DNA of 64,000 bases, from assembly GCF_045037415.1 (NCBI RefSeq), contig NZ_CP173438.1; one strand, written 5' to 3'. Under the pieces are notes generated by a model. The model saw only the letters and a program-made list of their open reading frames with translations. It did no database searches and was not told the DNA's origin. A program made the position numbers and the translations under genes. This DNA comes from Escherichia coli. Lineage in GTDB: Bacteria > Pseudomonadota > Gammaproteobacteria > Enterobacterales > Enterobacteriaceae. Numbering within the stretch: the stretch's first letter is position 1; each line of letters starts with the position of its first letter. Shown here piece after piece: positions 15,999-45,202 of the stretch.

Positions 15999-16003
15999 AT
16001 GTA

Positions 16004-18081: not shown

Positions 18082-18094
18082 GTTGATTCCTTTG

Positions 18095-18754: not shown

Positions 18755-21018
18755 TCACCCTCCTGATGCGTGGTAGCGGTCCCATTGAAGGGCAAAATAA
18801 AATCCCCCAAACAGAAAACAGATTCTTCAGCGACGTAAATAAGCTGACCGTTCAAACGCAGTGAAACAGGCGCAGAAGTTCGAATCGCAATACGCTGCGC
18901 GTCGAGAGTGACCTGTAATTCGCAGCCCTGCCAGAACAGAGGGAAAGACAACTGTTGCCACTGCTCAGGTAACGCCGGATTGAGATGTAATTCACCGTCA
19001 CGCACGCTCACCCCGGCAAAACCCTGAATCGCCCCCAGCCAGATAGCGCCAGTTGCGGCAGCGTGGATACCGTCATCACAGCTATGCGGATCAGCACCAA
19101 GATCGATTTCAGTCCCCTCGCGCCAGAACTGATAACTTTGGGTCAGCAGGCCACAGCGTGCGGCAACAATGCCGTGGATTGCTTTACTTAATGACGAGTC
19201 GTGAATAGTGCGCGGTTCATAAAATTGCAGATTGGCAAGACACGATGCCGCTGAGAACTGCTCCGGCAGCATGTAATTGAGCATCACCACATCAGCTTGT
19301 TTGAGGATCTGCATCTCGTTCACTTCTGCGCGTGAATAATCCAGCAGAATGGTTTGCTTCCCCGCCGCCGCTTTGTATTTCGCCAGATTAATCACCGGCT
19401 TAGCCATAAACGAATCATCCTGCGGCAAAACGCCGTCGGGCTGAATTTCTGGCAGCCGCAGTTCTTTGAGGTACATTTCTGCACGATGAATAAACGCGTC
19501 GTCGCTACAGCCAAACTGACGAGCGATATTCAGCGCCTGCTGGACGTTGTAATACGCCATATAGCTGGTGAAGGCGTTATTATTGACATGTTCGGTATAT
19601 TCGTCTGGCCCAATAACATCATGAATTTCCAGACGCTCGTTAACCCTCACCGCGCGGCTAATCCAGAACTTTGCCGTCTCCAGAAGTAGCGCCATGCCTT
19701 CATGAGCAATGAAACTTTCATCCCCCGTGGTCCGCCAGTATTGAATCACCGCCCAGGCGATATCGGCGACCAGATGGTGTTCCGCCTGCGCAGAGGCCAC
19801 TTTTTGCCGCAGCCCGGTACGAATGTTAATGGCGGCAAATTCCGGCGTCTCTTCTTCGCCGCTACGCGCGCTTTCCCACGGAAACAGAGCGCCCTGCCAG
19901 CCGTTGCGTCGCGCTTTCTCCTGCGCGCCAGGCAAGTTGTGCCAGCGATAACGCAGTAAACTTCGGGCAACCGTCGGATCGCTAAACAGATGGAACGGTA
20001 GCAAAAATACTTCTGTATCCCAGAAAACGTGGCCTTTGTAGCCTTCGCCGGTTAAACCTTTCGCCGCAATGCTGCTGCGCTCATCGTGGGCAGGCGTCAT
20101 GATGCGCAGGTGATAAAGCGCATAATCTAATGCTTGCTGATCGTGCGCATCGCGGCCGTTTACCGTGATACGACGTTTCTGCCACCATTGACGCCAGTTT
20201 TCTGTTGATGCTGCAAGAAGTTGGTCGTAACTCTGCTGCGCGCACATTTCAAGCTGACGAAGCGACGCACTGCCCCATTCGTCTAAAGCGGCTTGTCTGT
20301 CGTCCCGCCAGTCGATCCACACCAGTTTTTGCAGCGTCAGCGTCTCACCTGCGTGAAGCTGCGCGCAGGTATGTTGCAATAAACGGCGCTCTTTGGCGGT
20401 ATAGCATTGCTGCACATCACCGCTCACCTTACAGCAACAGCTGATGGCCACATCACTACGCCCATCCTGGGTGGTGTAGATCCCCTGCATCAGATGCTGA
20501 CCAAACACCCGCACCTGGATTTCGTCAATATGCTGGCGACCGTGGTTGGTTTGCGTGGCGTCAATGCCTGTTGAAATCAGCACTGACGCGTCGGCGTCCA
20601 GTGGAGTAATAGTGATTTCCAGCGCAATGAGCGGCAGTTGGTCTGCCGAAACAAAGCGACGGCTGGCGATGGTGTAACCAGTGCCGTTGCTGGTACGCCA
20701 GACAACGTTGCGACGTAATTCGCCACTGGCAAAGTTAAGCTCACGCTGCCATGCTTCGCGGGATAACGAGAAAATCTCACCATTTATGGCAATCTCCATC
20801 CCCACGACATCAGGCAGGTTCACCAGTTCGTTGATTTCTCCTTTACCCGCTCGATGATACAGCCCCGCCAGATACATCCCACGGGTCTGGCGCGTGTAAT
20901 CTTCTTCATGGCTGGCACGAAGCCCAAGATAGCCGTTCCCCTGCGCCATCAGCGAAGCATACTTGTTCAGGGTATGCTGGCTGAAATGGGGTTCTGATAA
21001 CGTTACTGGCCTGGTCAT
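18751..21018 (-). CDS. ycjT: Kojibiose phosphorylase (glycoside hydrolase family 65)
   Basis: 755-aa ORF; GH65 architecture; synteny in the ycj cluster. Confidence 0.9.
18769..18785. promoter_or_regulatory. Candidate YcjW (LacI-family) operator, inside the last codons of ycjT and just upstream of ycjU
   Basis: CGTGGTAGCGGTCCCAT, identical over 17 bp to 28696..28712; fits the LacI-family core TGnnAnCGnTnnCA. Confidence 0.6.
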
Positions 21019-22070
21019 AATTCCACACGCGTCCCTGTTTCCGCGGATTGATACAACGCCGCCACCAGTTGCTGGATGATGTACCCCTGCTCGGCGTCGG
21101 CTATCATCACGGGCTTGCCCTGTACGTGATTGATAAAGGCTTCCATGCTGCGCAAATGGCGGTTGTCGTCTGCCATTTCCCGTTGCATCAGCGTCATTAA
21201 TTCACCGTTGTTATCGGTGTAGATATGTGCCGGAAACAGCGTCGCACCGGCTTTATCACCACAAAAGCTGACATTCATAATCGACTGTTCGCGGATGTTG
21301 AGTGCAAATGACGTTTCCAGCCACAGAATGCCGCCGTTATGAAATTCAATGGTGCCAAACAGCGAATCTTCAACGCTGTAAGTTGCCGGGTCCCACTCGC
21401 CAAATTGACCACAGCTCTTTTGCGTGCCGATCTTTTGAAAGCTATGCGCATTCACGCTTTTCACCGCCGGAAAGCCCAGCACATACATCGCAGCATCCAG
21501 CATATGAATGCCGATGTCGATCAGCGGGCCACCACCCTGCAGTTCTTTATTGGTAAAGACACCCCAGCCGGGAACGCCGCTGCGACGCAGGGCGCGGGCG
21601 GTGGTAACGTAAATCTCTCCCAAAACGCCGTTGGTCACCTGTTCACGCAGCTGTTGCGTATCGAACGCAAAACGATGGTGAAAGTCGTAGGCCAGCACCT
21701 TGCCCTGTTTGCGCGCGGTATCGCACATTTCCCGCGCCTGTTCTGCCGTCATGGCGGGCGGTTTTTCGCACATCACATGGCAGCCCGCTTCAAGCGCCAT
21801 CAGGGTATGTTCGTAATGAAAACGGTTCGGTGAGCAGACGCTAACCACATCAGGTTTCACCGCCAGCAGCATGGCCTGCGGATCGTCCCACAAGGATGCA
21901 TTACCGTATTTTTCTGCCAGCGCCTGCGCCTGGGAAAGGCGGCTGTCACAGACGGCCACCAGTTCCAGATCGTTGCGGGTGCAGTAGTACGAAGCATGAA
22001 CCTTATCCGCCACCTGGCCTGCGCCGATTATCGCGACACGCAGCGGAGAGCTTGTCATTGCACTTTTCAC
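21015..22070 (-). CDS. ycjS: Gfo/Idh/MocA-family NAD-dependent sugar dehydrogenase YcjS
   Basis: 351-aa ORF; N-terminal Rossmann fold VAIIGAGQVA. Confidence 0.85.
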   Translation of the reverse strand: MKSAMTSSPLRVAIIGAGQVADKVHASYYCTRNDLELVAVCDSRLSQAQALAEKYGNASLWDDPQAMLLAVKPDVVSVCSPNRFHYEHTLMALEAGCHVMCEKPPAMTAEQAREMCDTARKQGKVLAYDFHHRFAFDTQQLREQVTNGVLGEIYVTTARALRRSGVPGWGVFTNKELQGGGPLIDIGIHMLDAAMYVLGFPAVKSVNAHSFQKIGTQKSCGQFGEWDPATYSVEDSLFGTIEFHNGGILWLETSFALNIREQSIMNVSFCGDKAGATLFPAHIYTDNNGELMTLMQREMADDNRHLRSMEAFINHVQGKPVMIADAEQGYIIQQLVAALYQSAETGTRVEL

Positions 22071-22079
22071 AAAGACCTC

Positions 22080-22868
22080 TTAGCAGGTGCGCAACCAGGC
22101 CAACGAATCACGGTACGCCTGGGCAGGAGCTTCTGCCCGGATACGCCCTTCATACACCACATAACCCTGATAGTTATCGGCGCGCAGCTGTTCAAACAGC
22201 GCGTGGAAATCGAGGGTGCCGCTGCCCGGCTGGTAACGATGGTTATCGGCAATATGCACATGACCGAGCAAGTCGCGGTGGTCATGCAGCGCCTGCGCCA
22301 GGTTATCTTCTTCGATGTTCATGTGATAGAAATCGCCGATAATCTGCACATGTTTAAGATCGTTTTCGACGATGTAACGGCGGGCATCGGCGAGAGTATT
22401 GATCATATGATCCTGATAACGGTTTAACGGTTCGAGATACACCACGGTTCCGGTACGCGCGGCGACCTGTTCCAGTACGCGCAGGGAATCACTCACCATT
22501 TTGCGGTCGCCGTCCAGGCTGCGCGGCGAGGTCATCGGCGGTAAACGGAAGGTAAACATGCCCCATGCAGCAGGAACGACGATACCTTTACCGCCCACTT
22601 CTGCCAGCGCTTCGAGAATGCGTTCGATCTGCTTTAAGCCATTAAGACGACGCTCTTCGATAAAATCACCAATCCAGCCGTCATAGCCGCCGCAGGCAGT
22701 GGTCACCGGTAAACCGGTTTCTTTGATCGCCGCTTTGACTTCTTCGATGTTGTTGACCAGCAGTTTGCCGTCAATCTCAAAACCATCGAAGCCCATCTCT
22801 TTGATGTAACGAAATTTCTCCAGAATATTTCCCGGAAAGAATGCCTGATTCTGTGTGCCTATTTTCAT
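22080..22868 (-). CDS. ycjR: Sugar-phosphate isomerase/epimerase (xylose-isomerase-like TIM barrel) YcjR
   Basis: ORF 22080..22997; start placed at MKIGTQNQAFF (ATG at 22866-22868) giving 262 aa. Confidence 0.85.
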   Translation of the reverse strand: MKIGTQNQAFFPGNILEKFRYIKEMGFDGFEIDGKLLVNNIEEVKAAIKETGLPVTTACGGYDGWIGDFIEERRLNGLKQIERILEALAEVGGKGIVVPAAWGMFTFRLPPMTSPRSLDGDRKMVSDSLRVLEQVAARTGTVVYLEPLNRYQDHMINTLADARRYIVENDLKHVQIIGDFYHMNIEEDNLAQALHDHRDLLGHVHIADNHRYQPGSGTLDFHALFEQLRADNYQGYVVYEGRIRAEAPAQAYRDSLAWLRTC

Positions 22869-22885
22869 TTTTTCATTCCTTTGAA

Positions 22886-23938
22886 TTAAAACGTAACGCC
22901 CATTTTGATGCTCTGTTCCGGATGCTGATCGACATACTGCATGTAGCTTTCCGGGCTGTTGGCAAAGGTCACTACCGGGTCGATTAAATCTTCGCAATTG
23001 AGATAACCGTTCATCAGCAGTTCCCAGCAGGTTTCTTCAATACGCTTACGGCTCCAGCGCGGATAATCCGGGTTCGGTTCGCTGCACGCGCGGGAGAAAA
23101 CAATTTTGGCGTTATTGAAATGCGCTTCGCGTCCGAGGTTAAAACCTTCAGCAAATGGTTTGGCAAACGCGACATAGGAGATGGTGCCGCCGTAGGCCAG
23201 ACCGCGGAGCGCCGACTGCAGCGCGTCGGCGTAGCCGCTGGTTTCGATAATCACATCGGCACCCTGCTTGCCGGTCAGCGTTTTGATCTCTTTACCTACG
23301 TCAGCGCCAATGGGGTTAAGACAGAAATCCGCACCGTGGCGACGGGCAATATCACAGCGATGAGCGATAGGATCGACACCAATCACCACCGACGCGCCAG
23401 CGCGTTTTGCCAGTTGAATGGCAATTTGACCAATCGTGCCAAGCCCTACCACCACCACAAAATCGCCCACGCGCACGTTGGCATCGCGCACGCCGCTCAT
23501 GGCAAACTGCGCCGGGTCGTAACAGACGGCGTTTTTCCAGGAGCTGCCTTGCGGCATTTTGCGCAGCTTGTAGTTATTCACTGCGTTAATGATGACCGTC
23601 TCGGAGAGCGGGCCGTAGCCGCATACGCTGTCGCCCACCGCGTAGTCGTTAACGTCGCTGCCGCACTCGATAATGTCGCCAACCACCATGTTGCCAAGCT
23701 GGAACTTGCCAAACTCAATGCCGCGCGGCGCATTTGCCGGACGCGGGCTGAACATCTGCCATTCACCGTTAAAGTCTTCATCGATAAACGGACTGGCAGC
23801 GCGGAAATCGACCACTTCCGTCCCGTGCTTCGGAGCGCCGAAACGCACGCGGATCTTCACTTCATTGGCTAAAATCGCCCGCTCTTCATACTCAACCAGC
23901 GCAGCTACACGCGGTGCTGTGGCTACTAACTTTTTCAT
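22886..23938 (-). CDS. ycjQ: Zinc-binding medium-chain alcohol/sugar dehydrogenase YcjQ
   Basis: 350-aa ORF; MDR-family NAD-binding GxGxxG (VVGLGTIGQ). Confidence 0.85.
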   Translation of the reverse strand: MKKLVATAPRVAALVEYEERAILANEVKIRVRFGAPKHGTEVVDFRAASPFIDEDFNGEWQMFSPRPANAPRGIEFGKFQLGNMVVGDIIECGSDVNDYAVGDSVCGYGPLSETVIINAVNNYKLRKMPQGSSWKNAVCYDPAQFAMSGVRDANVRVGDFVVVVGLGTIGQIAIQLAKRAGASVVIGVDPIAHRCDIARRHGADFCLNPIGADVGKEIKTLTGKQGADVIIETSGYADALQSALRGLAYGGTISYVAFAKPFAEGFNLGREAHFNNAKIVFSRACSEPNPDYPRWSRKRIEETCWELLMNGYLNCEDLIDPVVTFANSPESYMQYVDQHPEQSIKMGVTF

Positions 23939-23968
23939 GTAAAACTCCTTGTAAAGAAATTGGTCGCT

Positions 23969-24811
23969 TTAGCCCTTCACGCCACCAGCGGTCAAACCAC
24001 TCTTAATAAAACGTTCCGAAAGCGCATACATAATCACTACCGGTAGTGCGGTCACCAGCGAGGCCGCCATCATCCGTCCCCAGATGTAATCAGGCGTACT
24101 GAACAGCGCGTTCAGGCCCACAGGTAAGGTGAAATTGCTGGCGCTGGAAAGGAAAATCGACGCAAACAGATAGTCGTTCCACGCCACCATAAAGCAGTAG
24201 ACGAATACGGATATCAGCCCGGACATTGCCAGGGGCACGGTGATACGGAAGATAATTTGCAGACGATTGAGGCCATCCATCATTGCCGCTTCTTCGATTT
24301 CATCGGGGATGGTGTCGAAGTAGCTTTTCAGCATAAACACGGCGGTAGGCAGAGTTTGCGTCACCATGGTGATAATCAGCGCCATCTCGGTGTCGTAAAT
24401 GCCAAGTGCGGTGATGATTTTGAACAGCGGCACCACCAGCAAAATGCCGGAGAACATGTACACCGTGTAAAAGCTGGCGTTGATGGTCATTCGCCCTTTA
24501 AAGCGCAGGCGGGAAAGCGCGTAAGCCCCAAGAATGCCGAGAAATACCGCCACCACGGATGAAACCACCGACACCACCATGCTGTTACGGAAGTAGTCGA
24601 CAAACGGGAAAATCACCGGATTAAAAATGTCGACGTAATGCTCCAGCGTCCACTGCTGTGGCAGCAACGTAGGATGCAGCGAGATCGCCTCTTTTGCGCT
24701 CTTGAACGAGGTCATCAGCATCACAAAAAATGGAAACAGCGTGATGATGAGAAACAGCGCCAGCCCGCAGTAAAAACCGATTCGACTGAGTGTGCGTTTA
24801 TTTGTTGCCAT
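23969..24811 (-). CDS. ycjP: ABC sugar transporter permease YcjP
   Basis: 280-aa ORF; multiple TM helices and MalG-like EAA loop region. Confidence 0.85.
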   Translation of the reverse strand: MATNKRTLSRIGFYCGLALFLIITLFPFFVMLMTSFKSAKEAISLHPTLLPQQWTLEHYVDIFNPVIFPFVDYFRNSMVVSVVSSVVAVFLGILGAYALSRLRFKGRMTINASFYTVYMFSGILLVVPLFKIITALGIYDTEMALIITMVTQTLPTAVFMLKSYFDTIPDEIEEAAMMDGLNRLQIIFRITVPLAMSGLISVFVYCFMVAWNDYLFASIFLSSASNFTLPVGLNALFSTPDYIWGRMMAASLVTALPVVIMYALSERFIKSGLTAGGVKG

Positions 24812-25679
24812 TGAGGTTCACCCGTTTCCTGGTCAGCAGAATGACAGCGAAAATAATGATGAAAAGCACCACCGAGATCGCCGCCGCTTTCCCTAAGTCA
24901 TTAAAGGCAAAGGCGGTTTTGTAGAGATAGACACCGAGAATATCGACCTTGGTCGTCAGCAGATAAACATCCGCGAACATGTAGAACATCCAGATAGTGC
25001 GCAGGGTCACCACCGTCGCCAGAACCGGCATAATCGCGGGCAGCGTGACGATGCGAAACCGTTGCCAGGCATTCGCGCCATCCATCTCTGCCGCTTCGTA
25101 CAGCGATTTGTCGATGGTCTGCAAAATCGCCAGAAACGAGATAAAGGCATACGGGAAGTAGCGCCAGATGGCGAACAGCACCACCAGCACAAAACTACTG
25201 CCCGGGTTATCGAACCACAGCGGCGCCTGCTCATAGAGATGCAGAAGATCGACGCCGAGGTAGTTCACAATGCCGTAGCCGTTGTTGAACATGTATTTCC
25301 AGGCGAACACCAGCGAAATAGACGGCGTTACGTAGGAAAGGATCACCAGCGAACGCGCGGTTTTGCGCAGGCGGAACTCGCGGTTGAAAAACATCGCCAC
25401 GGCCAGCCCGAGCACGGTGCTGCCCGCCACCACAAGCGCGGTATACCAGACCGTCATCCACAGCGAGTGCCAGAAACCAGGATCGGAGAGAATGCGCACA
25501 TAGTTACTCACCCCAACAAACGTTGACTCGATGTTGGGATTAAGCGGCAGACGTAAAAAACTGATTTCGATATTCGACACCATCGGCCACGCCACCAGAC
25601 CGCCCAGCAGTAATAAGCTGGGCGCGAGAAGCAACAGCGCAAAGGGCATATCGGAACGACCTGAAAAAAGCCTGTTCAT
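24798..25679 (-). CDS. ycjO: ABC sugar transporter permease YcjO
   Basis: 293-aa ORF; MalF-like permease; 14-bp overlap with ycjP. Confidence 0.85.
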   Translation of the reverse strand: MNRLFSGRSDMPFALLLLAPSLLLLGGLVAWPMVSNIEISFLRLPLNPNIESTFVGVSNYVRILSDPGFWHSLWMTVWYTALVVAGSTVLGLAVAMFFNREFRLRKTARSLVILSYVTPSISLVFAWKYMFNNGYGIVNYLGVDLLHLYEQAPLWFDNPGSSFVLVVLFAIWRYFPYAFISFLAILQTIDKSLYEAAEMDGANAWQRFRIVTLPAIMPVLATVVTLRTIWMFYMFADVYLLTTKVDILGVYLYKTAFAFNDLGKAAAISVVLFIIIFAVILLTRKRVNLNGNK

Positions 25680-25699
25680 TGCGGATTCCTGTCCTGGGT

Positions 25700-26992
25700 T
25701 TAGCGCTGTTCGACCAACTCATCCAGCTTTTTCTGGCTCGCTTGCAGCGTGCCAGGGAGGTCGGCTTTACCCACGGTGACGTTATGCACCATTGAACTCA
25801 CCACACCAGACCCCGTCACATCACCCATGCGGGTAAAGTTTTTATCCCCTACTGCGCCAAAGACCTGAATATTTGGCAATTCGCTGATTAGCTGATTCGG
25901 CAATTCTCCCAGCGCCTTAATAACGTCGTTGTCTTTCCAGGTGGCGGTAGTGACAACCGCTTTGTTCACCGGCAGCGCCGCGCCTGGTGACATCATCACC
26001 CAGTCGGCAATGTTGTCCGCCTGCTCCATAAAGGTGACAAATTTTTCAGCCGCTTCGGTCTCTTCAGTCTTTTGCCCGGCGGTAATGGTCAGCGAGGTCA
26101 ACATGCCGTAGACCGCAGAATTTTTCTCGGTTGGCACCACGAAACCAACGTTTTTCGGATCGCCTTCTTTAATCACAGCCGGAAGGATATAGGTGGAGTA
26201 AATCGCCATCGGCGCGGTGCCGTTCATAAAAGCGTCTTTCACTTCCATGATGTCGTTAGAACCTGGCATGGTGTTGGCAGCAAGGTTGCGGTAATAGGTC
26301 AGCGCCTGCATCATCTCTGGTGTATCAAGGGTGATTTTGCCTTCGGCGTTAAAGACGTTAGCCTGATTGGATAACGCAAACTGGGAGAAAGACTGTTCCG
26401 TCAACACGCTTTCTGCTGTAGGCAGCGCAATACCGTATTTTTTATTCGCCGGGTCATTCAGTTTCTGTGCAACGTCCAGCAATTGCTGCCAGTTTTTTGG
26501 CTCCTCCAGCCCAGCTTTTGCCAGCACATCTTTGCGATACCAGATCCCGCCAATCCATGCGCTGACAGGAACACCGGTCCAGGCGCTGCCATCTTCGGTG
26601 CGCACAATCCGCAGTACGCCATCGTAGAACGCGCCTTCACCGACGTTGCTGATGACCGTGGCAACCGCTTTACGATCGATAAGCTGCTCTTTGTCCATCA
26701 CTTTGGCGTAGTCATGGCTGGTTTCGATCACTTCCGGCAGCGAACCGCTACGTGAAAGGGTAATGACTTTGGTGTTATAGGCGTCTTCTTCCACGGGCAC
26801 TTGTTTTACGGTGATACCTGGGTTTTCTTTTTCAAAACGGGCAATCAATTTGCTGATGACGGCCTGGCGCTCCTGCTCCACCGAAGAATGCATAAATTCG
26901 ATGGATACATTATTTTTATTTTCTTCTTTACAGCCTGAAATCAGGGCGCAGGAAACCAGTGCTGATAACAGCACGATTTTTGATTTAATCAT
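25700..26992 (-). CDS. ycjN: Periplasmic sugar-binding protein YcjN (ABC transporter)
   Basis: 430-aa ORF; lipoprotein-like signal (LISGC); SBP family 1. Confidence 0.85.
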   Translation of the reverse strand: MIKSKIVLLSALVSCALISGCKEENKNNVSIEFMHSSVEQERQAVISKLIARFEKENPGITVKQVPVEEDAYNTKVITLSRSGSLPEVIETSHDYAKVMDKEQLIDRKAVATVISNVGEGAFYDGVLRIVRTEDGSAWTGVPVSAWIGGIWYRKDVLAKAGLEEPKNWQQLLDVAQKLNDPANKKYGIALPTAESVLTEQSFSQFALSNQANVFNAEGKITLDTPEMMQALTYYRNLAANTMPGSNDIMEVKDAFMNGTAPMAIYSTYILPAVIKEGDPKNVGFVVPTEKNSAVYGMLTSLTITAGQKTEETEAAEKFVTFMEQADNIADWVMMSPGAALPVNKAVVTTATWKDNDVIKALGELPNQLISELPNIQVFGAVGDKNFTRMGDVTGSGVVSSMVHNVTVGKADLPGTLQASQKKLDELVEQR

Positions 26993-27005
26993 GAAATGTT
27001 CCTTT

Positions 27006-28685
27006 TTATTTAATCCACATAACCTGCCAGGGATGCAGTGTTATTTCATTACCCAATATATCAACTTCACTAATCAGATCCCGACCGTGCAGGTCAGTAA
27101 TATTTATATGCTGAATATTTTCGCTGACATTAAACAATCCCGTCAGGCAATCGCCATCCGCATTGCTTCTTTGAATTCGCATTACAAATGAATTAATTGC
27201 ATCGATGGTGAAATTATTATCCGGATGAAACTCTTTATGACTGCGACGAAGGGTAATTAAATGCGACAACTTATAATATACCGAATACCTTAATGTCGCT
27301 TTATTGTCCAGTTCTGTCGTTATCTCTTTACTAGAGTATTTTTTACGGTTAATCGCGCGATTATATCCAAGTTTTTCGACACCGGCGTAATCATTACGCG
27401 ACCCCAGAATGCTTTGAATATATATCGCTGGCACACCGGGGAAACTTAACAAAATCGCATGGGCGAGAATAAACCTGGCACACCGTTCTTCGTCGCTACA
27501 CTCACGGCGGCTCAACGCATCCATATAGGTGACATTCATTTCATAGGGGCTACGCGTACCGTCGGGATTATTTTTCCAGTTTACTAATGCCCCTTCCTGC
27601 TGTAACACCTCGACCAGCGCTAATATTTCGTTTTCGGGTAACAACCCCCGCAGTGGGTTAAGCCCGATGCCATCGTGAGAGGCAAGGAAGTTAAACCAGG
27701 TGGTGTTGCTGGAAGGTAGTGTCAGGTTTTGCGCCCACGCACAAAGTGCCTCAACGTTCTGTTTTTGCACCGCATGCAGCACCAGCGGCGGCAGCGAGAA
27801 CTGGTACACCATATGCGCTTCGTCATCGCCTTCGCCAAAGTAAGCAATGTTGTCTTTATGCGGAACATTGGTCTCGGTAATGATCACTGTGCCTGGCGCG
27901 ACGTTATCAATAATCGAACGTAACAGTTTGATAATCAGATGTGTTTTTTCCAGATGGATGCAGTTTGTTCCCGGCTCTTTCCACATAAAGCCAACGGCAT
28001 CCAGACGGACATACTCTGCGCCCTTTTCCAGGTAGCACAGCAATACATCCACCATCGCCAGCAACACTTCAGGGCTACGGTAATTGAGGTCAATTTGATC
28101 GTCGCTAAAGGTGGTCCATAAATGACGCGTTGAATGATCGCGCATCTGGAATGGCGTTAATAACGGTAACGCACGCGGGCGAGTGACGGCGCTGAGATCG
28201 GTTTTCGGATCAACGGTAATAAAAAAATCTTCAAAACCTGGCTGCTGTTGTAAATAGTTTTTAAACCATTCACTTTTTGCCGACATATGGTTGCAGACAA
28301 AATCAAACATTAAATGGCTGCATTCACCGAGTTGCTGAATATCCTGCCACTCCCCCGCTTCACTGGCGACCTGATGATAATCAATTACCGAAAATCCATC
28401 ATCAGATGACCATGGATAAAAAGGTAATAAATGAACATGTGAAAAAATTCTTTGCAGCCATTGAGGGTAAAACTGATTAAATGTGGGTAGTGGCTTTAAA
28501 TCATTACTGTGAAATTGATCGGCATAGGTAATTAACACGACATCACTTTCATCCCAGTGTTTTTTACGTCGCTGTGTAATTAATCGTTTCGCACTCTCAA
28601 GACGCGTTACAAGTTTCTGTAAATGAGTCGCGGTAAATGTTCCACCGTAGATTTCGTCCAGGTAATCCGTAATTTTCTGTTGCAT
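27006..28685 (-). CDS. ycjM: GH13 sucrose-phosphorylase-like enzyme YcjM (reported glucosylglycerate phosphorylase)
   Basis: ORF 27006..28712; start placed at MQQKITDYL (ATG at 28683-28685) giving 559 aa. Confidence 0.85.
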   Translation of the reverse strand: MQQKITDYLDEIYGGTFTATHLQKLVTRLESAKRLITQRRKKHWDESDVVLITYADQFHSNDLKPLPTFNQFYPQWLQRIFSHVHLLPFYPWSSDDGFSVIDYHQVASEAGEWQDIQQLGECSHLMFDFVCNHMSAKSEWFKNYLQQQPGFEDFFITVDPKTDLSAVTRPRALPLLTPFQMRDHSTRHLWTTFSDDQIDLNYRSPEVLLAMVDVLLCYLEKGAEYVRLDAVGFMWKEPGTNCIHLEKTHLIIKLLRSIIDNVAPGTVIITETNVPHKDNIAYFGEGDDEAHMVYQFSLPPLVLHAVQKQNVEALCAWAQNLTLPSSNTTWFNFLASHDGIGLNPLRGLLPENEILALVEVLQQEGALVNWKNNPDGTRSPYEMNVTYMDALSRRECSDEERCARFILAHAILLSFPGVPAIYIQSILGSRNDYAGVEKLGYNRAINRKKYSSKEITTELDNKATLRYSVYYKLSHLITLRRSHKEFHPDNNFTIDAINSFVMRIQRSNADGDCLTGLFNVSENIQHINITDLHGRDLISEVDILGNEITLHPWQVMWIK

Positions 28686-28695
28686 GTTGCCTTTC

Positions 28696-28712
28696 CGTGG
28701 TAGCGGTCCCAT
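28696..28712. promoter_or_regulatory. Candidate YcjW (LacI-family) operator in the ycjM leader
   Basis: CGTGGTAGCGGTCCCAT about 10-27 bp upstream of the ycjM start codon; twin of 18769..18785. Confidence 0.6.
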
Positions 28713-30151: not shown

Positions 30152-30892
<741 letters not shown>

Positions 30893-30986
30893 TTATCTTT
30901 TTGATTTATAAAGATCTGATTGAAGAATCAACAGCAACATGCCAGGATGAATTAGCGAATTACACTAACAAGTGGCGAATTTCATC

Positions 30987-31964
30987 ATGGCAGAATACAA
31001 AGATAATTTACTCGGTGAGGCGAACAGCTTTCTCGAAGTGCTGGAACAGGTTTCGCATCTCGCACCGCTGGACAAACCGGTGCTCATCATCGGCGAGCGC
31101 GGCACCGGTAAAGAGCTGATTGCCAGCCGTCTGCATTATCTCTCCTCCCGTTGGCAAGGGCCGTTTATTTCCCTTAACTGCGCGGCGTTAAATGAAAATT
31201 TGCTGGATTCCGAACTGTTTGGTCACGAAGCGGGGGCGTTTACCGGTGCGCAAAAACGTCATCCAGGGAGATTTGAACGTGCCGACGGCGGTACGCTATT
31301 TCTTGATGAACTCGCTACGGCACCGATGATGGTGCAGGAAAAATTATTGCGTGTGATTGAGTACGGTGAACTGGAGCGCGTCGGCGGCAGCCAGCCATTG
31401 CAGGTGAATGTGCGGTTGGTATGCGCGACGAATGCCGATCTCCCGGCAATGGTCAATGAAGGGACTTTTCGCGCTGACCTGCTCGACCGACTAGCGTTCG
31501 ATGTTGTGCAACTGCCGCCACTACGCGAACGTGAAAGCGACATTATGTTGATGGCAGAACACTTTGCCATCCAGATGTGTCGGGAAATCAAGCTGCCTCT
31601 GTTCCCGGGTTTTACCGAGCACGCCAGAGAAACATTGCTGAATTATCGCTGGCCGGGAAATATACGTGAATTGAAAAACGTGGTGGAACGTTCAGTGTAT
31701 CGCCACGGCACCAGCGATTATCCGCTTGATGACATCATTATTGATCCCTTTAAACGCCGTCCATCTGAAGAAGCCATCGCCGTTTCAGAAAACACCTCGC
31801 TTCCGACGCTGCCGCTGGATTTACGCGAGTTTCAGATGCAGCAGGAAAAAGAACTGCTTCAGGTCAGCTTGGAACAAGGGAAGTATAACCAGAAGCGCGC
31901 CGCTGAATTGCTGGGGTTAACCTATCATCAGTTCCGCGCGTTGCTGAAAAAGCACCAGCTTTAG
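30987..31964 (+). CDS. pspF: PspF, sigma54-dependent enhancer-binding activator of the psp operon
   Basis: ORF 30972..31964; start placed at MAEYKDNLLG giving 325 aa; AAA+ Walker A GERGTGKE, GAFTGA motif, C-terminal HTH. Confidence 0.95.
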   Translation: MAEYKDNLLGEANSFLEVLEQVSHLAPLDKPVLIIGERGTGKELIASRLHYLSSRWQGPFISLNCAALNENLLDSELFGHEAGAFTGAQKRHPGRFERADGGTLFLDELATAPMMVQEKLLRVIEYGELERVGGSQPLQVNVRLVCATNADLPAMVNEGTFRADLLDRLAFDVVQLPPLRERESDIMLMAEHFAIQMCREIKLPLFPGFTEHARETLLNYRWPGNIRELKNVVERSVYRHGTSDYPLDDIIIDPFKRRPSEEAIAVSENTSLPTLPLDLREFQMQQEKELLQVSLEQGKYNQKRAAELLGLTYHQFRALLKKHQL

Positions 31965-31983
31965 CATTTCGACAATGCAACTT

Positions 31984-32065
31984 GCCGGGTGTGCCGTGAA
32001 CGCCTTATCAGGCCTACAAAATCAATACGTCGTTTGCAGGCCTGATAAGCGCTGCGCATCAGGCA
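31984..32065. repeat. REP/BIME-like palindromic elements downstream of pspF
   Basis: GCCGGGTGTGCCGTGAACGCCTTATCAGGCCTAC ... GCAGGCCTGATAAGCGCTGCGCATCAGGC, typical REP consensus pieces in inverted orientation. Confidence 0.7.
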
Positions 32066-32095
32066 TTATTGCGTTAACCCTGCTTCTGCGTATTA

Positions 32096-32167
32096 ATCTC
32101 TCAGCGCATCCTGCAAAATTTTCATTGCCGCATCGAATTGCGCAACCGGGATGGTATGGGCTTCGTT
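32096..32167 (-). pseudogene. Possible 3'-terminal remnant of a class-III aminotransferase gene (puuE/gabT-like)
   Basis: Minus-strand frame ends ...[24 protein letters not shown] followed by stop TAA at 32093-32095; resembles GabT-type C-termini (TIxDAQ.....I); no upstream ORF. Confidence 0.3.
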
Positions 32168-32255
32168 AGGCGGCGCATATTTGTGGTATTTGATCCGCCG
32201 CTATCGCAAAGTGCCATTGTATGATGGCGACAGAACGCCGGTGAGCGAAACGTAA
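32157..32255 (+). pseudogene. Possible 3'-terminal remnant of an APC-family permease gene (puuP-like)
   Basis: Plus-strand frame ends ...[32 protein letters not shown] (hydrophobic helix end plus basic cytoplasmic tail); no start or upstream ORF. Confidence 0.25.
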
Positions 32256-32388
32256 TAGTCGAATGCGCGGCGCATTATCCTGCCTGAGGGTAATGCACCG
32301 CGCCATTAACTATAAAAATATGTATGACCCGGATCACGAGTGCTATCATCCGCCCTTATGCTTAGCGCATTAACCCCAGGGGCAAATA

Positions 32389-32634
32389 ATGAACCACGAT
32401 ATCCCGCTAAAATATTATGATATTGCCGATGAGTACGCGACCGAATGCGCAGAGCCTGTCGCAGACGCTGAACGCACACCGCTGGCCCACTACTTCCAGT
32501 TACTGCTCACCCGTTTGATGAACAATGAAGAGATCAGTGAAGAAGCCCAACATGAAATGGCTGCTGAAGCGGGGATTAATCCCGTACGCATTGATGAGAT
32601 CGCAGAGTTTTTGAATCAATGGGGTAATGAGTAA
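32389..32634 (+). CDS. ymjA: Small protein YmjA (DUF2543)
   Basis: 81-aa acidic ORF; synteny next to sapA. Confidence 0.8.
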
Positions 32635-32664
32635 TTATTTAATTGCAGACTATCGGTCAGTATC

Positions 32665-32697
32665 GTTGCCCGGATAAAGCGTTCGCGCCGCATCCGG
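32665..32697. repeat. REP-like palindromic unit between ymjA and sapA
   Basis: TTGCCCGGATAAAGCGTTCGCGCCGCATCCGGC. Confidence 0.6.
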
Positions 32698-32946
32698 CTA
32701 AAAATGACACGCACTGCAGCGTGCTTTAATGGGTTTCTCACGATCGTACCGCTCTGCTCCTCGCTAAGTTGTTCTGTGAGTTATAGTTATAAAGAAATCA
32801 CGGGTACGAATGTTGAACTGATGGCGACGCCACCTGTTCAATGACCAACCACACGGCCCTCATTATTACCTCTGAACACAAACGGTAATGGCAAATGTCA
32901 TTAAATATTAGTAAGATAGCCTCTTTACATAAAATCCCTTAATATT

Positions 32947-34590
32947 ATGCGCCAGGTATTATCGTCTCTTTTGGTGATTGCTGGACTTGTGAGTGGTCAG
33001 GCAATCGCCGCGCCTGAATCCCCCCCGCATGCTGATATCCGCGACAGCGGTTTTGTCTATTGCGTCAGCGGGCAAGTCAACACCTTTAACCCATCCAAAG
33101 CGAGCAGTGGGTTAATTGTCGATACCCTTGCCGCCCAGTTTTATGATCGACTGCTGGATGTCGATCCCTATACCTATCGTCTGATGCCGGAACTTGCCGA
33201 AAGCTGGGAAGTACTCGACAACGGCGCAACCTATCGCTTCCACCTGCGTCGCGATGTTCCGTTTCAAAAAACCGACTGGTTTACTCCCACTCGTAAAATG
33301 AATGCCGACGATGTGGTTTTTACCTTCCAGCGAATTTTTGACCGCAACAACCCGTGGCATAACGTTAATGGCAGCAACTTCCCCTACTTCGACAGCCTGC
33401 AATTTGCCGATAACGTGAAAAGCGTCCGCAAACTGGATAATCATACCGTTGAGTTCCGTCTGGCTCAGCCGGATGCTTCTTTTTTGTGGCACCTCGCGAC
33501 CCATTATGCTTCGGTCATGTCGGCAGAATATGCAGGGAAGTTAGAGAAAGAAGATCGCCAGGAGCAACTCGACCGTCAACCGGTCGGCACCGGTCCGTAT
33601 CAGTTGTCGGAATACCGCGCCGGGCAATATATTCGCTTACAACGTCATGATGATTTCTGGCGTGGTAAGCCGTTGATGCCACAAGTGGTGGTGGATTTAG
33701 GCTCTGGCGGTACAGGACGATTGTCGAAACTCCTGACCGGGGAGTGCGACGTTCTGGCCTGGCCTGCTGCCAGTCAGCTATCCATTTTGCGTGACGACCC
33801 ACGCTTGCGTTTAACGCTGCGTCCTGGGATGAACGTCGCCTATCTGGCATTCAACACCGCCAAACCGCCGCTAAATAATCCCGCTGTCCGCCATGCGCTG
33901 GCACTGGCAATTAATAACCAGCGCCTGATGCAATCCATCTATTATGGTACGGCTGAAACAGCGGCCTCTATTTTACCGCGCGCCTCGTGGGCCTATGACA
34001 ACGAGGCTAAAATTACTGAATACAATCCGGCAAAATCGCGCGAACAGTTGAAGGCGTTGGGGCTGGAAAACTTAACGCTGAAACTGTGGGTGCCCACACG
34101 TTCGCAGGCGTGGAACCCCAGTCCACTGAAAACCGCCGAACTGATTCAGGCGGATATGGCACAGGTTGGCGTAAAAGTGGTGATTGTGCCGGTAGAAGGT
34201 CGTTTTCAGGAGGCGCGGTTGATGGATATGAGCCATGATCTGACGTTATCCGGTTGGGCGACGGACAGTAACGACCCGGACAGTTTCTTCCGTCCGTTAC
34301 TGAGCTGCGCGGCAATTCATTCGCAGACCAACCTCGCCCACTGGTGCGATCCGAAATTCGACAGCGTGTTGCGTAAGGCGCTCTCCTCGCAGCAGCTGGC
34401 GGCGCGTATTGAAGCCTATGACGAAGCGCAAAGTATTCTGGCGCAGGAATTACCTATTCTGCCGCTGGCGTCGTCATTGCGTTTGCAGGCCTATCGGTAC
34501 GATATCAAAGGTCTGGTACTTAGCCCGTTTGGTAACGCCTCCTTTGCTGGGGTGTATCGCGAGAAACAGGATGAGGTGAAAAAGCCATGA
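32947..34590 (+). CDS. sapA: Periplasmic binding protein SapA (peptide/putrescine ABC transporter)
   Basis: 547-aa ORF; signal peptide; SBP family 5; heads the sapABCDF operon. Confidence 0.9.
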
Positions 34591-38276: not shown

Positions 38277-39440
38277 TTACTTTTGGTTGTCGATTCTGGT
38301 GAGAGCAACCAGCAATGCCAGCGTATAACACACCGTAATTGCCAGACTCATTTTTAACAGTGTTTCTCCGCCAATTCCCGACAATGGCGCGGCTATACCG
38401 CCGAAGACAAACATGCTCATCCCCATCAACGCAGACGCCGTTCCAGATTCCTGCGTCCCTACTGCACTCATAGCCTCTGCCCCGCCAACAGTGCCGATGC
38501 CGCTACAAAATGCGATGGTGAAAAATAATGCCACCAGTGCCGGAATGGGCAATTGTATCCATGCGCATAAGACCGTGAGCAATGCACACAAAATTGCCGC
38601 TATCAGGCCACCTCGCAACAATGTCATCGCGTTAATCCGTCGCGCCAGGCGCGAGAAGATCCATGAAGCAATGATAAGTCCGGTGCCGTTAAGGCCAAAC
38701 ACCAGGCTAAATTGCATTGGACTAAAGCCAAATTCCTTCTGCAACACGAACGACGAAGAGCCGATATATGCAAACAAACCGGCCAGCATAAAACTTTGAA
38801 TCAGGCAAAAGCGCATAAAACGGCGGTTCTGCACCACGCTTCGTCCGGTTAATAGCAATGATGAGCCCCTTTTATTTTCTGGCAAGGTCTCATGAATAAA
38901 TAACAGACAGCCCAGCAACAGTACGGTGCTAATTTCAGCCATTACCCAGAATAAAGTGCGCCAGTCAAAAGTGCTAACAATGTACCCGCCCAGCACTGGC
39001 GACAACACCGGTGCCAGGCCATTCACCGTCATTAACAGCGCAAAAAACTGGGTCAACGTTACTCCCTGATATTTGTCACGAGCAATAGAACGAGAGAGCA
39101 CCGAACCACCCGCCCCCGCGATCCCTTGAATAAAACGCCAGACCACCAGCCAGTAAATATTGTTCGTTGTCGCGCATAAAATGGAAGAAACAATAAACAA
39201 TAGCAACGACAAGATTAACGGACGTTTACGCCCTATTTTGTCGCTCAGAGGGCCAAATAACAGTTGTCCGACGCCAAGACCAATCAGTGATGCGGTCAGG
39301 GTTAATTGCGTTATGGTCGTGGTTGCCGCCAGTTGCTCAGACATCTCCGGCAAAGCCGGCAAATAAAGATCGGTACACATCGGGCCGATACCGGCTAAAA
39401 GACCAAGAATCAATGCCCATGAAAGAGAGACTCTAGCCAT
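38277..39440 (-). CDS. MFS drug:H+ antiporter, Bcr/CflA (DHA1) family
   Basis: 387-aa ORF; about 12 predicted TM helices; MFS motif A GPLSDKIGRKRP; N-terminus resembles Bcr. Confidence 0.8.
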   Translation of the reverse strand: MARVSLSWALILGLLAGIGPMCTDLYLPALPEMSEQLAATTTITQLTLTASLIGLGVGQLLFGPLSDKIGRKRPLILSLLLFIVSSILCATTNNIYWLVVWRFIQGIAGAGGSVLSRSIARDKYQGVTLTQFFALLMTVNGLAPVLSPVLGGYIVSTFDWRTLFWVMAEISTVLLLGCLLFIHETLPENKRGSSLLLTGRSVVQNRRFMRFCLIQSFMLAGLFAYIGSSSFVLQKEFGFSPMQFSLVFGLNGTGLIIASWIFSRLARRINAMTLLRGGLIAAILCALLTVLCAWIQLPIPALVALFFTIAFCSGIGTVGGAEAMSAVGTQESGTASALMGMSMFVFGGIAAPLSGIGGETLLKMSLAITVCYTLALLVALTRIDNQK

Positions 39441-39448
39441 ATTATTCC

Positions 39449-40822
39449 TTACTTGAGTGATGACATACCGCCGCCCAGCGACTGCCAGAGCGTGATTCGG
39501 TTTGTAAAATCAGTCAGTTGCAGTGCCAGCAGCTCCTGCTGTGCGCTCCACAAGCTGCGCTGCGCCGTCAACACGGTCAGGTAATCACCAACACCCGCCT
39601 GATAGCGACGCAAGCCAACATCGACCGTTTGTTGTTCAGCTTTAACATACTGGCGCTGTGCATCCAGTTGCTCTTCAAGCGTGGTCCGCCGCGCCAGTGC
39701 GTTAGCGACATCTTTAAATGCGCTCTGAACGGTTTTTTCATAGGTGGCAATGAGTCCACGCTTTTGTGCTTCTGCGTAACGAAGCTGCGCCAGATTACTT
39801 CCGCCAGTAAACAGCGGTAATGTGACCGATGGCGCAAATGACCAGATCTGCATTCCGTGGCTGAACAACGACGACAACGCGTCACTGCCAACACCGGCAC
39901 TGGCAGTCAGCGAAATCGTCGGGAAAAAGTTAGCCCGCGCCGCGCCAATATCTGCATTGGCGCTCTTCAAATTATGTTCCGCTTCCTGGATATCCGGGCG
40001 ACGCAGCAGAACATCAGATGATACTCCCGCAGGAACCAGACTTATCATTTGTTCCGGCAGGCTTTCCAGTGTTCCCGGTAGCAGATTTTCCGCAAGCGTT
40101 GTACCTGCCAGTAAGTTCAGCGCATTTTTATCCTGCATCACTTGTGTCTGATAGCTGGCAACGCTGGCGCGCGCTTGCTGATAAACACTCATCGCCTCAC
40201 TGACATCTGTCGCTGCCGCCGTGCCAACCTGTTGCTGGCGCTGGATAATTTTCAATGAGTTTTCTGCACTGGCCATCGTTTCTTTTGCCAGGGCCAGGTT
40301 GCTGTTATCAGCCGCCAGTGTCAGCCAGGCGGTGCTGATTTCAGCAATCAGCGTTAAACGAGTGTTCTGGGCTGTAAATTCACTGGCAAGCCAGGTTTCC
40401 CGCGCCGCCCGAGATAAACTCTGATTACGACCAAACAGATCTAACGTATAACTGGACACCGTGCCGTCAGCCTCGGCAGTTGTTCCCGTACCATTCGCCA
40501 GCGAACGGCTGCGGGTCGAACTTAAGGCCGCATTCACCGTCGGAAATAACGACGCATTAGTTTGCCCATAGAGCGCCCGTGCTGAGTCAATATCAGCAAT
40601 CGCTTTTTGCACATCGCGGTTACTGTTCAGTGCAATGGTTACTACCTGCTGCAATCGGGGATCGTGGATCACCTGCTGCCAGTCATGGCTGATTGCCTTC
40701 CCCTGGCCCTGTGCTCCCGGCAAGGTCGCCGGGATTGGGGATTCAGGCGTACTGTAGTGAGGATCGAGCGAGACACATCCCGCACTCAACAACACCAGAA
40801 AAATAAGAGAACGACGCAACAT
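39449..40822 (-). CDS. Outer-membrane efflux lipoprotein (OMF, NodT/OprM family)
   Basis: 457-aa ORF; lipobox LLSAGC; two coiled-coil/TolC-like repeats. Confidence 0.85.
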   Translation of the reverse strand: MLRRSLIFLVLLSAGCVSLDPHYSTPESPIPATLPGAQGQGKAISHDWQQVIHDPRLQQVVTIALNSNRDVQKAIADIDSARALYGQTNASLFPTVNAALSSTRSRSLANGTGTTAEADGTVSSYTLDLFGRNQSLSRAARETWLASEFTAQNTRLTLIAEISTAWLTLAADNSNLALAKETMASAENSLKIIQRQQQVGTAAATDVSEAMSVYQQARASVASYQTQVMQDKNALNLLAGTTLAENLLPGTLESLPEQMISLVPAGVSSDVLLRRPDIQEAEHNLKSANADIGAARANFFPTISLTASAGVGSDALSSLFSHGMQIWSFAPSVTLPLFTGGSNLAQLRYAEAQKRGLIATYEKTVQSAFKDVANALARRTTLEEQLDAQRQYVKAEQQTVDVGLRRYQAGVGDYLTVLTAQRSLWSAQQELLALQLTDFTNRITLWQSLGGGMSSLK

Positions 40823-40825
40823 AAC

Positions 40826-43800
40826 TTACTCCTGACGGCGCGGTTTACCGGCAAACAAACGTTTCACCAGTACAAAAAACAGAGGAACGAAGAAAATGGC
40901 CAGTAATGTAGCGGTCAGCGTGCCGCCAATAATGCCCGTACCAATGGCGATGCGGCTGTTCGCCCCTGCGCCGGTTGCTATCGCCAGCGGCATTACCCCC
41001 GCAATAAACGCCAGCGAGGTCATGATGATTGGGCGTAAACGAGTCTGCGCCGCGCGTAATGCCGCACGACTCAAGGAATAGCCCTCTGCAACCGCCGCTT
41101 CAGCAAATTCCACAATCAGAATGGCGTTTTTCGACGACAAGCCGATAGTAGTTAATAGCGCTACCTGGAAGTAAACGTCGTTGTTTAAATCACGCATCCA
41201 GGCCGCCAGCGCCGCGCCAAGAAGCCCCAGAGGGATCACCAGAATGACCGAGAACGGGACTGACCAGCTTTCGTACAGTGCTGCAAGGCAGAGGAAAACC
41301 ACCAGAATAGAAACTGCATACAGACTTAATGCCTGACCGCTGGCCAGTTTCTCCTGCAATGACAAACCACTCCAGGCCCAGGTTGTTCCCGCAGGAAGAC
41401 TGTTTGCCAGTTCCTCCATTTTTGTCATTGCATCGCCGGAACTAAAGCCAGTCGCGTTTTCGCCCTGAATTTCATAGGCTGCCGAGCCGTTGTAGCGCAC
41501 CAGTCTTTCCGGTCCATACAGCCAGCGGGTGGTCGCAAAAGCAGAGAATGGTGTCATGGCGTTATCGCTGCCGCGCACAAACCATTTACCTAAGTCTGAC
41601 GGCGCGGAACGAAATTCGCTGTCGCCCTGAATGTAGACTTTTTTCACACGACCACGGTCAATAAAGTCATTCACATAAGTACCGCCCCACGCACTGGACA
41701 GGGTGTCGGTGACATCATTCAAACTCAACCCTAATGACACCGCTTTATTACTATCAATATCTACCTGCAATTGCGGCATTTGTGGCAAATCATTGGCGCG
41801 TACAGAATGTAACTCCGGACTTTGATTCGCTTTTTCTATCAACTGATTACGCATTTGCAGCAGTGTTTCACGATCGGTTCCACCGTTAGCTAACAATTCA
41901 AACGTAAAACCATTGCTTTGGCCCAGCCCATCAACGGCTGGCGGCGTCATCGCAAATACCGTGGCATCACGAATTGTGCCCAGCTCTTTGGTTGCCCGTA
42001 GGGCGATAGCCTGGGCGGTGTTTTCTGCCCCTTTACGTTGAGACCAGTTTTTCAACGAAACAAACGCCATCCCGGTGTTCTGTCCGCTACCGCTAAAACT
42101 GAAACCATCAACGGTAAAGATGACATCGGTATTTGCTTTCTCGTTAATCAGGAACCAGTCAACAATCTGGCGATTCACTTCTGCTGTACGGGCAGCGGTC
42201 GCCCCGGCCGGCAGCGTGTACTGCACCATGATTTCGCCCTGGTCTTCAGTGGGTAAGAAACTGCCCGGCAGTTTCCACATCATCAGGGCCATTCCACCAC
42301 CCAGCACGACATAAAGCCCCATCGTTCGGGCTGCACGGCGCAGGACATAAATTACGCCTCGCTGATATTTATCTTCAGTACGGCGGTAAAAGCGGTTAAA
42401 TGCGCCGAAAAAGCCTTTTTTATGTGGTGGAACATGCTGGAGGACGGAACCGCACAGGGCGGGAGTCAAGGTCAATGCCACCACCACGGAAAGCAGCATT
42501 GCGGAGATGATGGTGATGGAGAACTGACGATAAATTACCCCCGTAGATCCCCCAAAGAAGGCCATCGGCAGGAATACGGCTGACAACACCAGCGCAATGG
42601 CAACCAGTGCGCCAGAAATCTCGCCCATTGATTTTTCCGTGGCTTCACGCGCGGGCAACCCTTCGTCACGCATAATGCGTTCGACGTTCTCTACCACCAC
42701 AATGGCATCGTCCACCAGCAAGCCGATCGCCAGCACCATTGCAAACAACGTCAGGGTATTAATCGAATAGCCAAACAACGCAAGAACGCCGAATGTGCCC
42801 AGCAAAACGACGGGGACAGCTAACGCCGGAATCAGTGTGGCACGCAGGTTTTGCAGGAATAAATACATCACGCAAACCACCAATACGATGGCTTCAAACA
42901 GCGTCTGAATTACGTCCTCTACGGAGATTTTAATAAATTCAGTGCTGTCTTTCGGGTATGCGATGTCGTATCCCTGCGGCATGTTCCGCTGGAATTCGGC
43001 AATCTTATCCTTGACCAGCGTCGCCGTATTCAGCGCATTCGCACCGGGCGAAAGCATTACAGCAACCCCGGCAGACGGGTGACCGTTAAGTTTGCCGATA
43101 GCGGTATAATCTTCACTGCCCATCTCAACGCGAGCCACATCTTTTATACGAACAACTGCGCCGTCTGACTGGCTTTTCACGATAATATTTTTGAACTGAT
43201 CCACCGTCTGCAAGCGAGACTGCGCACGTACCGTTGCGGTCAGTTGCTGAGTATCCGGTGAAGGCAATGCCCCTATTTTCCCGGCAGTAACCTGCACGTT
43301 TTGCGCTTCAATAGCACTTTGCACGTCTGAAGGCATCAGCGAGTAAGACGCCAGTTTGGCCGGGTCAAGCCAGATGCGCATAGCGTATTCCGCGCCAAAG
43401 ACTTGCAGACTCCCCACACCTTCAACACGCGCCAGCGGGTCCTGAACGTTACTGACCAGCCAGTCGGCGATATCCGAACTGGAGGCTTTGTCAGTGGTGT
43501 CATACACGGCAGCAATCAGCAAAAAGTTGCTTTGTGATTTCTCCACCGTAACACCCGTTTGCTGCACTTCGCTGGGTAGGCGCGACTCCGCCTGCTGAAT
43601 TTTATTCTGCACCTGAACCTGTGCAGTATCTGGATCGGTACCTTGTTCAAAGGTCACATTAATACTGACCGAACCATCAGAGCTACTGGTTGAGCTGAAA
43701 TAGAGTAAATTATCAAGCCCAGTGAGTTGTTGCTCGATAACCTGAGTCACGCTGTTCTCCAGCGTTTCGGCAGAAGCACCAGTATAAGTGGCTGAAATTT

Positions 43801-43933
43801 TAATGGTCGGCGGTGCAACGTCAGGATATTGCGCGACGGGCAATGTGCGAATAGCCAGAATCCCTGCCAACATAATCAAAATGGCGATAACCCAGGCAAA
43901 GACCGGGCGGCGAACAAAAAAGCGCGAAAACAT
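40826..43933 (-). CDS. RND multidrug efflux transporter (HAE1 family, AcrB/MexB-like)
   Basis: 1035-aa ORF; N-terminus MFSRFFVRRPVFAWVIAILIMLAG and overall motifs closely parallel AcrB but not identical; 12-TM RND architecture. Confidence 0.9.
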   Translation of the reverse strand: MFSRFFVRRPVFAWVIAILIMLAGILAIRTLPVAQYPDVAPPTIKISATYTGASAETLENSVTQVIEQQLTGLDNLLYFSSTSSSDGSVSINVTFEQGTDPDTAQVQVQNKIQQAESRLPSEVQQTGVTVEKSQSNFLLIAAVYDTTDKASSSDIADWLVSNVQDPLARVEGVGSLQVFGAEYAMRIWLDPAKLASYSLMPSDVQSAIEAQNVQVTAGKIGALPSPDTQQLTATVRAQSRLQTVDQFKNIIVKSQSDGAVVRIKDVARVEMGSEDYTAIGKLNGHPSAGVAVMLSPGANALNTATLVKDKIAEFQRNMPQGYDIAYPKDSTEFIKISVEDVIQTLFEAIVLVVCVMYLFLQNLRATLIPALAVPVVLLGTFGVLALFGYSINTLTLFAMVLAIGLLVDDAIVVVENVERIMRDEGLPAREATEKSMGEISGALVAIALVLSAVFLPMAFFGGSTGVIYRQFSITIISAMLLSVVVALTLTPALCGSVLQHVPPHKKGFFGAFNRFYRRTEDKYQRGVIYVLRRAARTMGLYVVLGGGMALMMWKLPGSFLPTEDQGEIMVQYTLPAGATAARTAEVNRQIVDWFLINEKANTDVIFTVDGFSFSGSGQNTGMAFVSLKNWSQRKGAENTAQAIALRATKELGTIRDATVFAMTPPAVDGLGQSNGFTFELLANGGTDRETLLQMRNQLIEKANQSPELHSVRANDLPQMPQLQVDIDSNKAVSLGLSLNDVTDTLSSAWGGTYVNDFIDRGRVKKVYIQGDSEFRSAPSDLGKWFVRGSDNAMTPFSAFATTRWLYGPERLVRYNGSAAYEIQGENATGFSSGDAMTKMEELANSLPAGTTWAWSGLSLQEKLASGQALSLYAVSILVVFLCLAALYESWSVPFSVILVIPLGLLGAALAAWMRDLNNDVYFQVALLTTIGLSSKNAILIVEFAEAAVAEGYSLSRAALRAAQTRLRPIIMTSLAFIAGVMPLAIATGAGANSRIAIGTGIIGGTLTATLLAIFFVPLFFVLVKRLFAGKPRRQE

Positions 43934-45054: not shown

Positions 45055-45138
45055 TATTTTCTCCAGGGTGAGAAATACCCTCCTCATTGAAATTAATGAG
45101 GATATGTCAGGGATATTCAGTTATAACGAACCCGCATC

Positions 45139-45154
45139 GCGAAATGAATTTCGC
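45139..45154. promoter_or_regulatory. Candidate repressor operator upstream of the adaptor-RND-OMF-MFS genes
   Basis: Palindrome GCGAAATGAATTTCGC (7+2+7) about 85 bp upstream of the adaptor start codon. Confidence 0.4.
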
Positions 45155-45164
45155 AATGAAATAA

Positions 45165-45182: not shown

Positions 45183-45202
45183 GCTATTGGTTAATTCTGT
45201 TC

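Follow-up and report, generated by a model that had tools for sequence, protein, structure and literature searches.

In Escherichia coli K-12 MG1655, the puu cluster (b1296-b1302) lies between ymjA and pspF in the order ymjA, puuP, ymjE, puuA, puuD, puuR, puuC, puuB, puuE, pspF. The two flanking genes are 9,266 bp apart, with eight genes within this distance, and the arrangement is the same in the genomes TC_EC10 and PD23. A preliminary description of the DNA analysed here had given the presence and order of the K-12 cluster correctly; its size of about 10 kb was too large, and ymjE, between puuA and puuP, had been omitted.

Phylogroup B2 differs from this arrangement at the gene level. The genes puuPADRCBE, assigned to "putrescine degradation II", are listed among the activities that B2 specifically lacks (Touchon et al. 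2009, PMC2617782), and the genes absent from B2 are enriched for putrescine catabolism (Fang et al. 2018, PMC5996543). Both puu operons were reported to be lacking in B2 strains (Hogins et al. 2023, PMC10580932), and 26 B2 strains yielded no puu transcripts (bioRxiv 10.64898/2025.12.08.692790). The group behind the 2023 study has proposed that the putrescine content of B2 cells is higher in consequence (bioRxiv 10.64898/2025.12.08.692790; PMC11968103). The puu loss has already been known at the gene level since 2009, and it is a lineage-wide trait of B2, not a strain-specific one.

We analysed a stretch of 64,000 nucleotides from E. coli contig NZ_CP173438.1 (assembly GCF_045037415.1), hereafter called the window, which is from a B2 strain. 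The genes missing from it, the locus and the lineage are the same as in the published B2 absence, and the B2 references CFT073 and E2348/69 bear an identical scar. Whereas that absence was described at the level of genes (by Touchon, Fang and Hogins and their colleagues), analysis of the window adds a base-exact junction, a TGGT microhomology and two gene-end remnants. Our literature search (puuE/pspF/ymjA) found no open-access paper on the exact junction, the TGGT microhomology or the two remnants; the base-exact breakpoint with its microhomology may be a small unreported detail. We consider it very probable that the spacer between pspF and ymjA is the scar of a single 8,851-bp deletion, which occurred once in an early ancestor of phylogroup B2 and has been inherited vertically since then.

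The spacer is bordered on the left by pspF (30987..31964, plus strand), which encodes the transcriptional activator of the psp operon, and on the right by ymjA (32389..32634, plus strand), which encodes a DUF2543 protein. The coordinates of ymjA come from its open reading frame and annotations; for pspF we used its open reading frame together with the PGAP annotation of SK1144, a near-identical strain that stays in register with the window from position 13280 on. With pspF ending at 31964 and ymjA starting at 32389, the spacer spans 31965-32388, and the gap of 424 bp given in the preliminary description was confirmed. The SK1144 spacer, the closest match, is 100% identical to that of the window.

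We rejected the idea that the window equals SK1144 throughout, as the two differ within the first 13 kb: a 672-bp stretch of ycjF is deleted in SK1144 but present in the window. In SK1144, this in-frame deletion lies between imperfect short repeats (GTCCATC.CC.CTTC) and leaves a 129-codon "DUF697" gene. The ycjF gene of the window (12389-13450) is full length, with 353 codons, so that the "truncated ycjF" is a feature of SK1144, not of the window.

Two gene ends are retained in the spacer. The first, at 32093..32155 on the minus strand, consists of the last 20 codons plus the stop codon of puuE, which has 421 codons. Its peptide is identical to K-12 PuuE 402-421 at 18 of 20 residues (BLASTP, E=6e-10), and its DNA matches PD23 puuE at 61 of 63 nucleotides. 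The second, at 32152..32255 on the plus strand (codons 32154-32255), consists of the last 33 codons plus the stop codon of puuP, which has 461 codons; here all 33 residues are identical to K-12 PuuP 429-461 (BLASTP, E=1e-22), and 101 of 104 nucleotides match PD23 puuP. The preliminary description had read the minus-strand peptide as the C terminus of a class-III aminotransferase, and the plus-strand tail as that of a permease. Both readings held, as PuuE and PuuP respectively, and comparison of the two C termini with the K-12 proteins gave the significant matches listed above.

Relative to the intact K-12 cluster, the chromosomal position and gene orientation are the same and the puuE and puuP 3' ends are nearly identical, whereas the window is without 8,851 bp and is left with 20 of 421 PuuE codons and 33 of 461 PuuP codons. 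These shares correspond to 5% of PuuE and 7% of PuuP, and we regard both remnants as non-functional relics. Comparison with K-12, TC_EC10 and PD23 showed that the remnants lie between pspF and ymjA as their parent genes do in the intact cluster, where puuE converges with pspF and puuP runs in the same direction as ymjA. PGAP calls the puuP remnant a pseudogene of 108 nt (32148-32255), with entries in SK1144, CFT073, E2348/69, UPEC129 and EC67. When a 91-nt junction probe was searched against 28 Gb of sequence, its two halves matched annotated puuE and puuP separately, with E values of 1e-12 to 5e-16, which is far above chance.

The last variable PuuE residue differs by lineage, being R in the window, K in PD23, N in TC_EC10 and S in K-12. 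Directly 3' of the puuE stop codon, the window carries an 11-bp block, CTGCTTCTGCG, at 32080-32090; this block is found in B2 strains, in PD23 and in O157:H7-type genomes, and K-12 and TC_EC10 are without it.

The junction was placed by aligning the window with three genomes in which the cluster is intact, K-12, TC_EC10 and PD23, at their pspF-puuE and puuP-ymjA ends. Both sides aligned base for base with the intact genomes up to TGGT and diverged directly beyond it. On the puuE side, the match runs to ...CCGGGATGGT, after which the intact genomes read CAGCGG...; on the puuP side, the intact genomes read ...CTCGGTCTGGT followed by ATGGGC..., and the window matches them from TGGT on. The motif is present at both parental sites in the intact genomes and as a single copy in the window. 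A BLAST search with the probe 32110-32200 gave concordant breakpoints, with the puuP half matching from position 43 and the puuE half matching to position 46. Alignments, BLAST breakpoints and direct reading together place the deletion junction at 32152..32155, a 4-bp microhomology common to the puuE and puuP sides, and not near 32157-32167, where the two remnants had earlier been thought to abut. The wider match around TGGT is imperfect, with 7 of 9 bases shared (CGGGATGGT versus CGGTCTGGT).

Calculated from the codons that remain and their positions in K-12, the missing segment measures 8,851 bp and corresponds to approximately 1,357,906-1,366,756 of K-12 NC_000913.3. The sizes agree: 9,266 minus 8,851 leaves 415 bp, and adding the 11-bp block missing from K-12 and taking off a 2-bp indel by the pspF stop codon gives 424 bp. 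The comparison with the MG1655 region that had been suggested at the outset showed the same thing, with eight genes present there and 8,851 bp missing from the window. No foreign, insertion sequence or mobile-element DNA was found at the junction, every base of 31965-32388 aligning to native pspF-puuE or puuP-ymjA DNA.

An alternative origin of the puu-less state is ancestral absence, in which this lineage never had puu here and other E. coli gained the cluster by insertion between pspF and ymjA. Nothing specific favours this origin, apart from about 19% of genomes being without the cluster. However, the spacer carries true puuE and puuP 3' ends, 61/63 and 101/104 nucleotides of which are identical to an intact genome, and truncated internal gene ends at the empty site cannot be explained by an insertion. 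We regard ancestral absence as virtually impossible. Because the truncated 3' ends of both genes, which are terminal and convergently placed, were kept at the empty site, the puu-less state is derived by deletion; the preliminary description had proposed a deletion joining the 3' ends of puuE and puuP, and this proposal was borne out by true 3' ends in the correct orientation with native intergenic DNA on both sides.

In the deletion that we favour, puuE codon 402 would have been joined to puuP codon 428/429 across TGGT in a single chromosomal event. The missing segment comprises puuP codons 1-428, ymjE, puuA, puuD, puuR, puuC, puuB and puuE codons 1-401. Deletions by short-homology illegitimate recombination in E. 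coli have a clean junction and a few shared bases, without a mobile-element scar, and the junction in the window is like them on all three counts. Compared with such deletions in general, the homology here is only 4 bp (7/9 in the imperfect wider match), the distance is 8.85 kb, and the enzymology is not readable from sequence. A junctional overlap of at least 4 bp arises by chance in approximately 1.6% of random joins. The clean junction together with the microhomology suggests illegitimate, short-homology recombination, which may have proceeded, for example, by replication slippage or end joining; the 4-bp overlap fits such recombination without proving it and is weak evidence for any particular mechanism.

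To describe the distribution of the junction, we searched 5,426 complete E. coli genomes. A contiguous junction was found in 1,044 of them, with both a 701-nt probe and the 91-nt junction probe. Split matches, in annotated puuE and puuP lying apart, were found in about 4,300-4,380 of the 5,426 genomes, which are nearly all of the non-carriers. The carriers include the B2 reference strains CFT073 and E2348/69, the O25:H4 strain CU568-3 and many urinary and blood isolates; the three named strains represent three B2 lineages in which the junction is identical. In CFT073 and E2348/69, the locus consists of pspF, the 108-nt PGAP pseudogene and ymjA, with a junction that is base-identical to that of the window; the window and CFT073 are colinear over 41.6 kb, with 98.6% identity. 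The cluster is intact in K-12 (group A), in O157:H7 (group E; the matches fall in annotated puuE and puuP), in PD23 and in TC_EC10. Between two strains of the Reitzer laboratory, KE50 has the junction and KE47 is intact. For the 1,044 carriers, the equation of the junction with B2 is based on the literature, on strain names and on three strains that are either references or typed.

Derived changes lie inside the remnants, among them an A at 32146, which produces D405V at the conserved Asp405 of PuuE, and a T at 32191. They were present in all carriers examined and in none of the intact genomes. These changes bear on a second alternative, in which the deletion did not occur in a single B2 ancestor, having instead either arisen repeatedly from TGGT to TGGT at a hotspot or passed from lineage to lineage through homologous recombination. 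Recombination in flanking DNA is frequent in E. coli, and the junction sits on two REP haplotypes of the pspF-proximal 60 bp, one shared by the window and E2348/69 and the other by CFT073, UPEC129 and EC67. However, this haplotype difference is limited to approximately 60 bp and looks like local conversion after the deletion, a homology of 4 bp is too short for repeated identical deletions of 8.85 kb, and the derived substitutions are common to all junction carriers examined and absent in intact genomes. Recurrence or spread is accordingly very unlikely in our judgement. The shared junction and the derived substitutions instead speak for a single, old deletion that dates from the base of B2 or close to it.

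The remainder of the spacer is native DNA, and pspF and ymjA, together with their own intergenic regions, are intact. REP/BIME-type palindromic elements occupy 31984..32064, a stretch that aligns to the pspF-puuE intergenic region of intact K-12, TC_EC10 and PD23 and was kept after the deletion. It contains an inverted repeat with arms at 32004-32020 and 32033-32049 that are 94% complementary. The 133-bp puuP-ymjA intergenic region (32256..32388) is unaltered by the deletion and colinear with the corresponding spacer of K-12, TC_EC10 and PD23. A permissive Rfam scan of 30800-33000 revealed no RNA gene in the spacer, returning sub-threshold matches to the REP-derived naRNA4 (at 31941-32014, and a weak one at 32668-32735) and a spurious match to a Brucella sRNA. 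Likewise, a consensus scan of 31900-32450 for promoters and terminators gave no match.

Just 3' of the pspF stop codon, the REP sequence of the window (31965-32030) shows approximately 13 differences and a 2-bp indel within 60 bp relative to CFT073, UPEC129, EC67 and all aligned non-B2 genomes. E2348/69 has the same REP version after pspF as the window. The clustering of these differences suggests local gene conversion by another REP copy.

The junction also creates an open reading frame of 34 codons, running from an ATG at 32151 to the stop codon at 32255, and we considered whether it might be a functional small membrane protein under selection. Its ATG start was formed at the junction, and the frame is intact in all aligned B2 sequences. 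However, direct reading revealed no Shine-Dalgarno-like sequence upstream, the consensus scan found no promoter-like site in the spacer, and PGAP treats the frame as a pseudogene. B2 strains differ from one another in this frame by synonymous as well as non-synonymous changes (G/A at 32217, S/N in EC67 and C/T in UPEC129), and conservation is not above that of the neighbouring non-coding DNA. A selected function for this frame is exceedingly improbable, and its expression is a more remote possibility than a pathoadaptive origin of the loss, which is taken up below; we read the frame as part of the deletion scar.

Several other differences were seen elsewhere in the window and in related loci. 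Between sapF and fabI (38277-45769) lies a five-gene efflux island encoding a TetR/AcrR regulator, an RND adaptor, an RND permease, an outer-membrane factor and an MFS transporter; the corresponding site in TC_EC10 holds ycjD. Among the 5,426 complete genomes, 2,037 carry the island, and O157:H7 and B2 strains are among these carriers; its distribution is wider than B2 and not shared with the puu deletion. As a B2 marker co-distributed with the deletion, the island was rejected on this count. In E2348/69, an ISEc13 insertion lies between the MFS efflux gene and sapF. In TC_EC10, pspE adjoins ycjX, and the ycjM-ycjW/ompG sugar-utilisation cluster, which is present at approximately 15000-28700 of the window, is missing.

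As for function, the gene content of the locus implies that it would supply no Puu enzyme, PuuR repressor or PuuP importer, and that the gamma-glutamylated pathway of putrescine catabolism would be lost; this loss concerns the present locus, the PatA/PatD route and other putrescine transporters lying outside the window. A comparison can be made with cadA, which encodes the lysine decarboxylase that makes cadaverine. Maurelli and colleagues reportedly described pathoadaptive "black hole" deletions of cadA in Shigella and enteroinvasive E. coli in 1998, and an antivirulence effect is said to have been shown experimentally. The cadA losses are multiple and independent. The puu deletion resembles them in that a polyamine-related metabolic locus was deleted throughout an E. 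coli lineage enriched in pathogens. By contrast, the B2 puu loss looks like a single event, and any fitness benefit of it is putative, whereas the antivirulence effect of cadA is experimental.

A pathoadaptive interpretation of the B2 puu loss has already been raised, as a proposal, by the Reitzer group (bioRxiv 10.64898/2025.12.08.692790; PMC10580932; PMC11968103). If the deletion were a pathoadaptive loss fixed in the B2 ancestor and not a neutral relic, the main catabolic route and the PuuP importer would have been lost beside a retained sapBCDF putrescine exporter, and intracellular putrescine would have been raised and re-set, which could contribute to the distinct physiology of B2 and to extraintestinal virulence. 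We consider this interpretation conceivable, though unlikely.

The scar marks the window as belonging to phylogroup B2, the lineage that dominates urinary-tract and bloodstream infections, and the 91-nt junction sequence (32110-32200) could serve as a simple B2 marker if it is confined to B2. Current understanding is unchanged by these observations, the gene-level fact having been in the literature for years. The lack of the main putrescine degradation pathway in B2 would, on the reading that we favour, reflect one ancient deletion and not a lineage that never had the genes, and this bears on models of polyamine homeostasis in uropathogenic strains.
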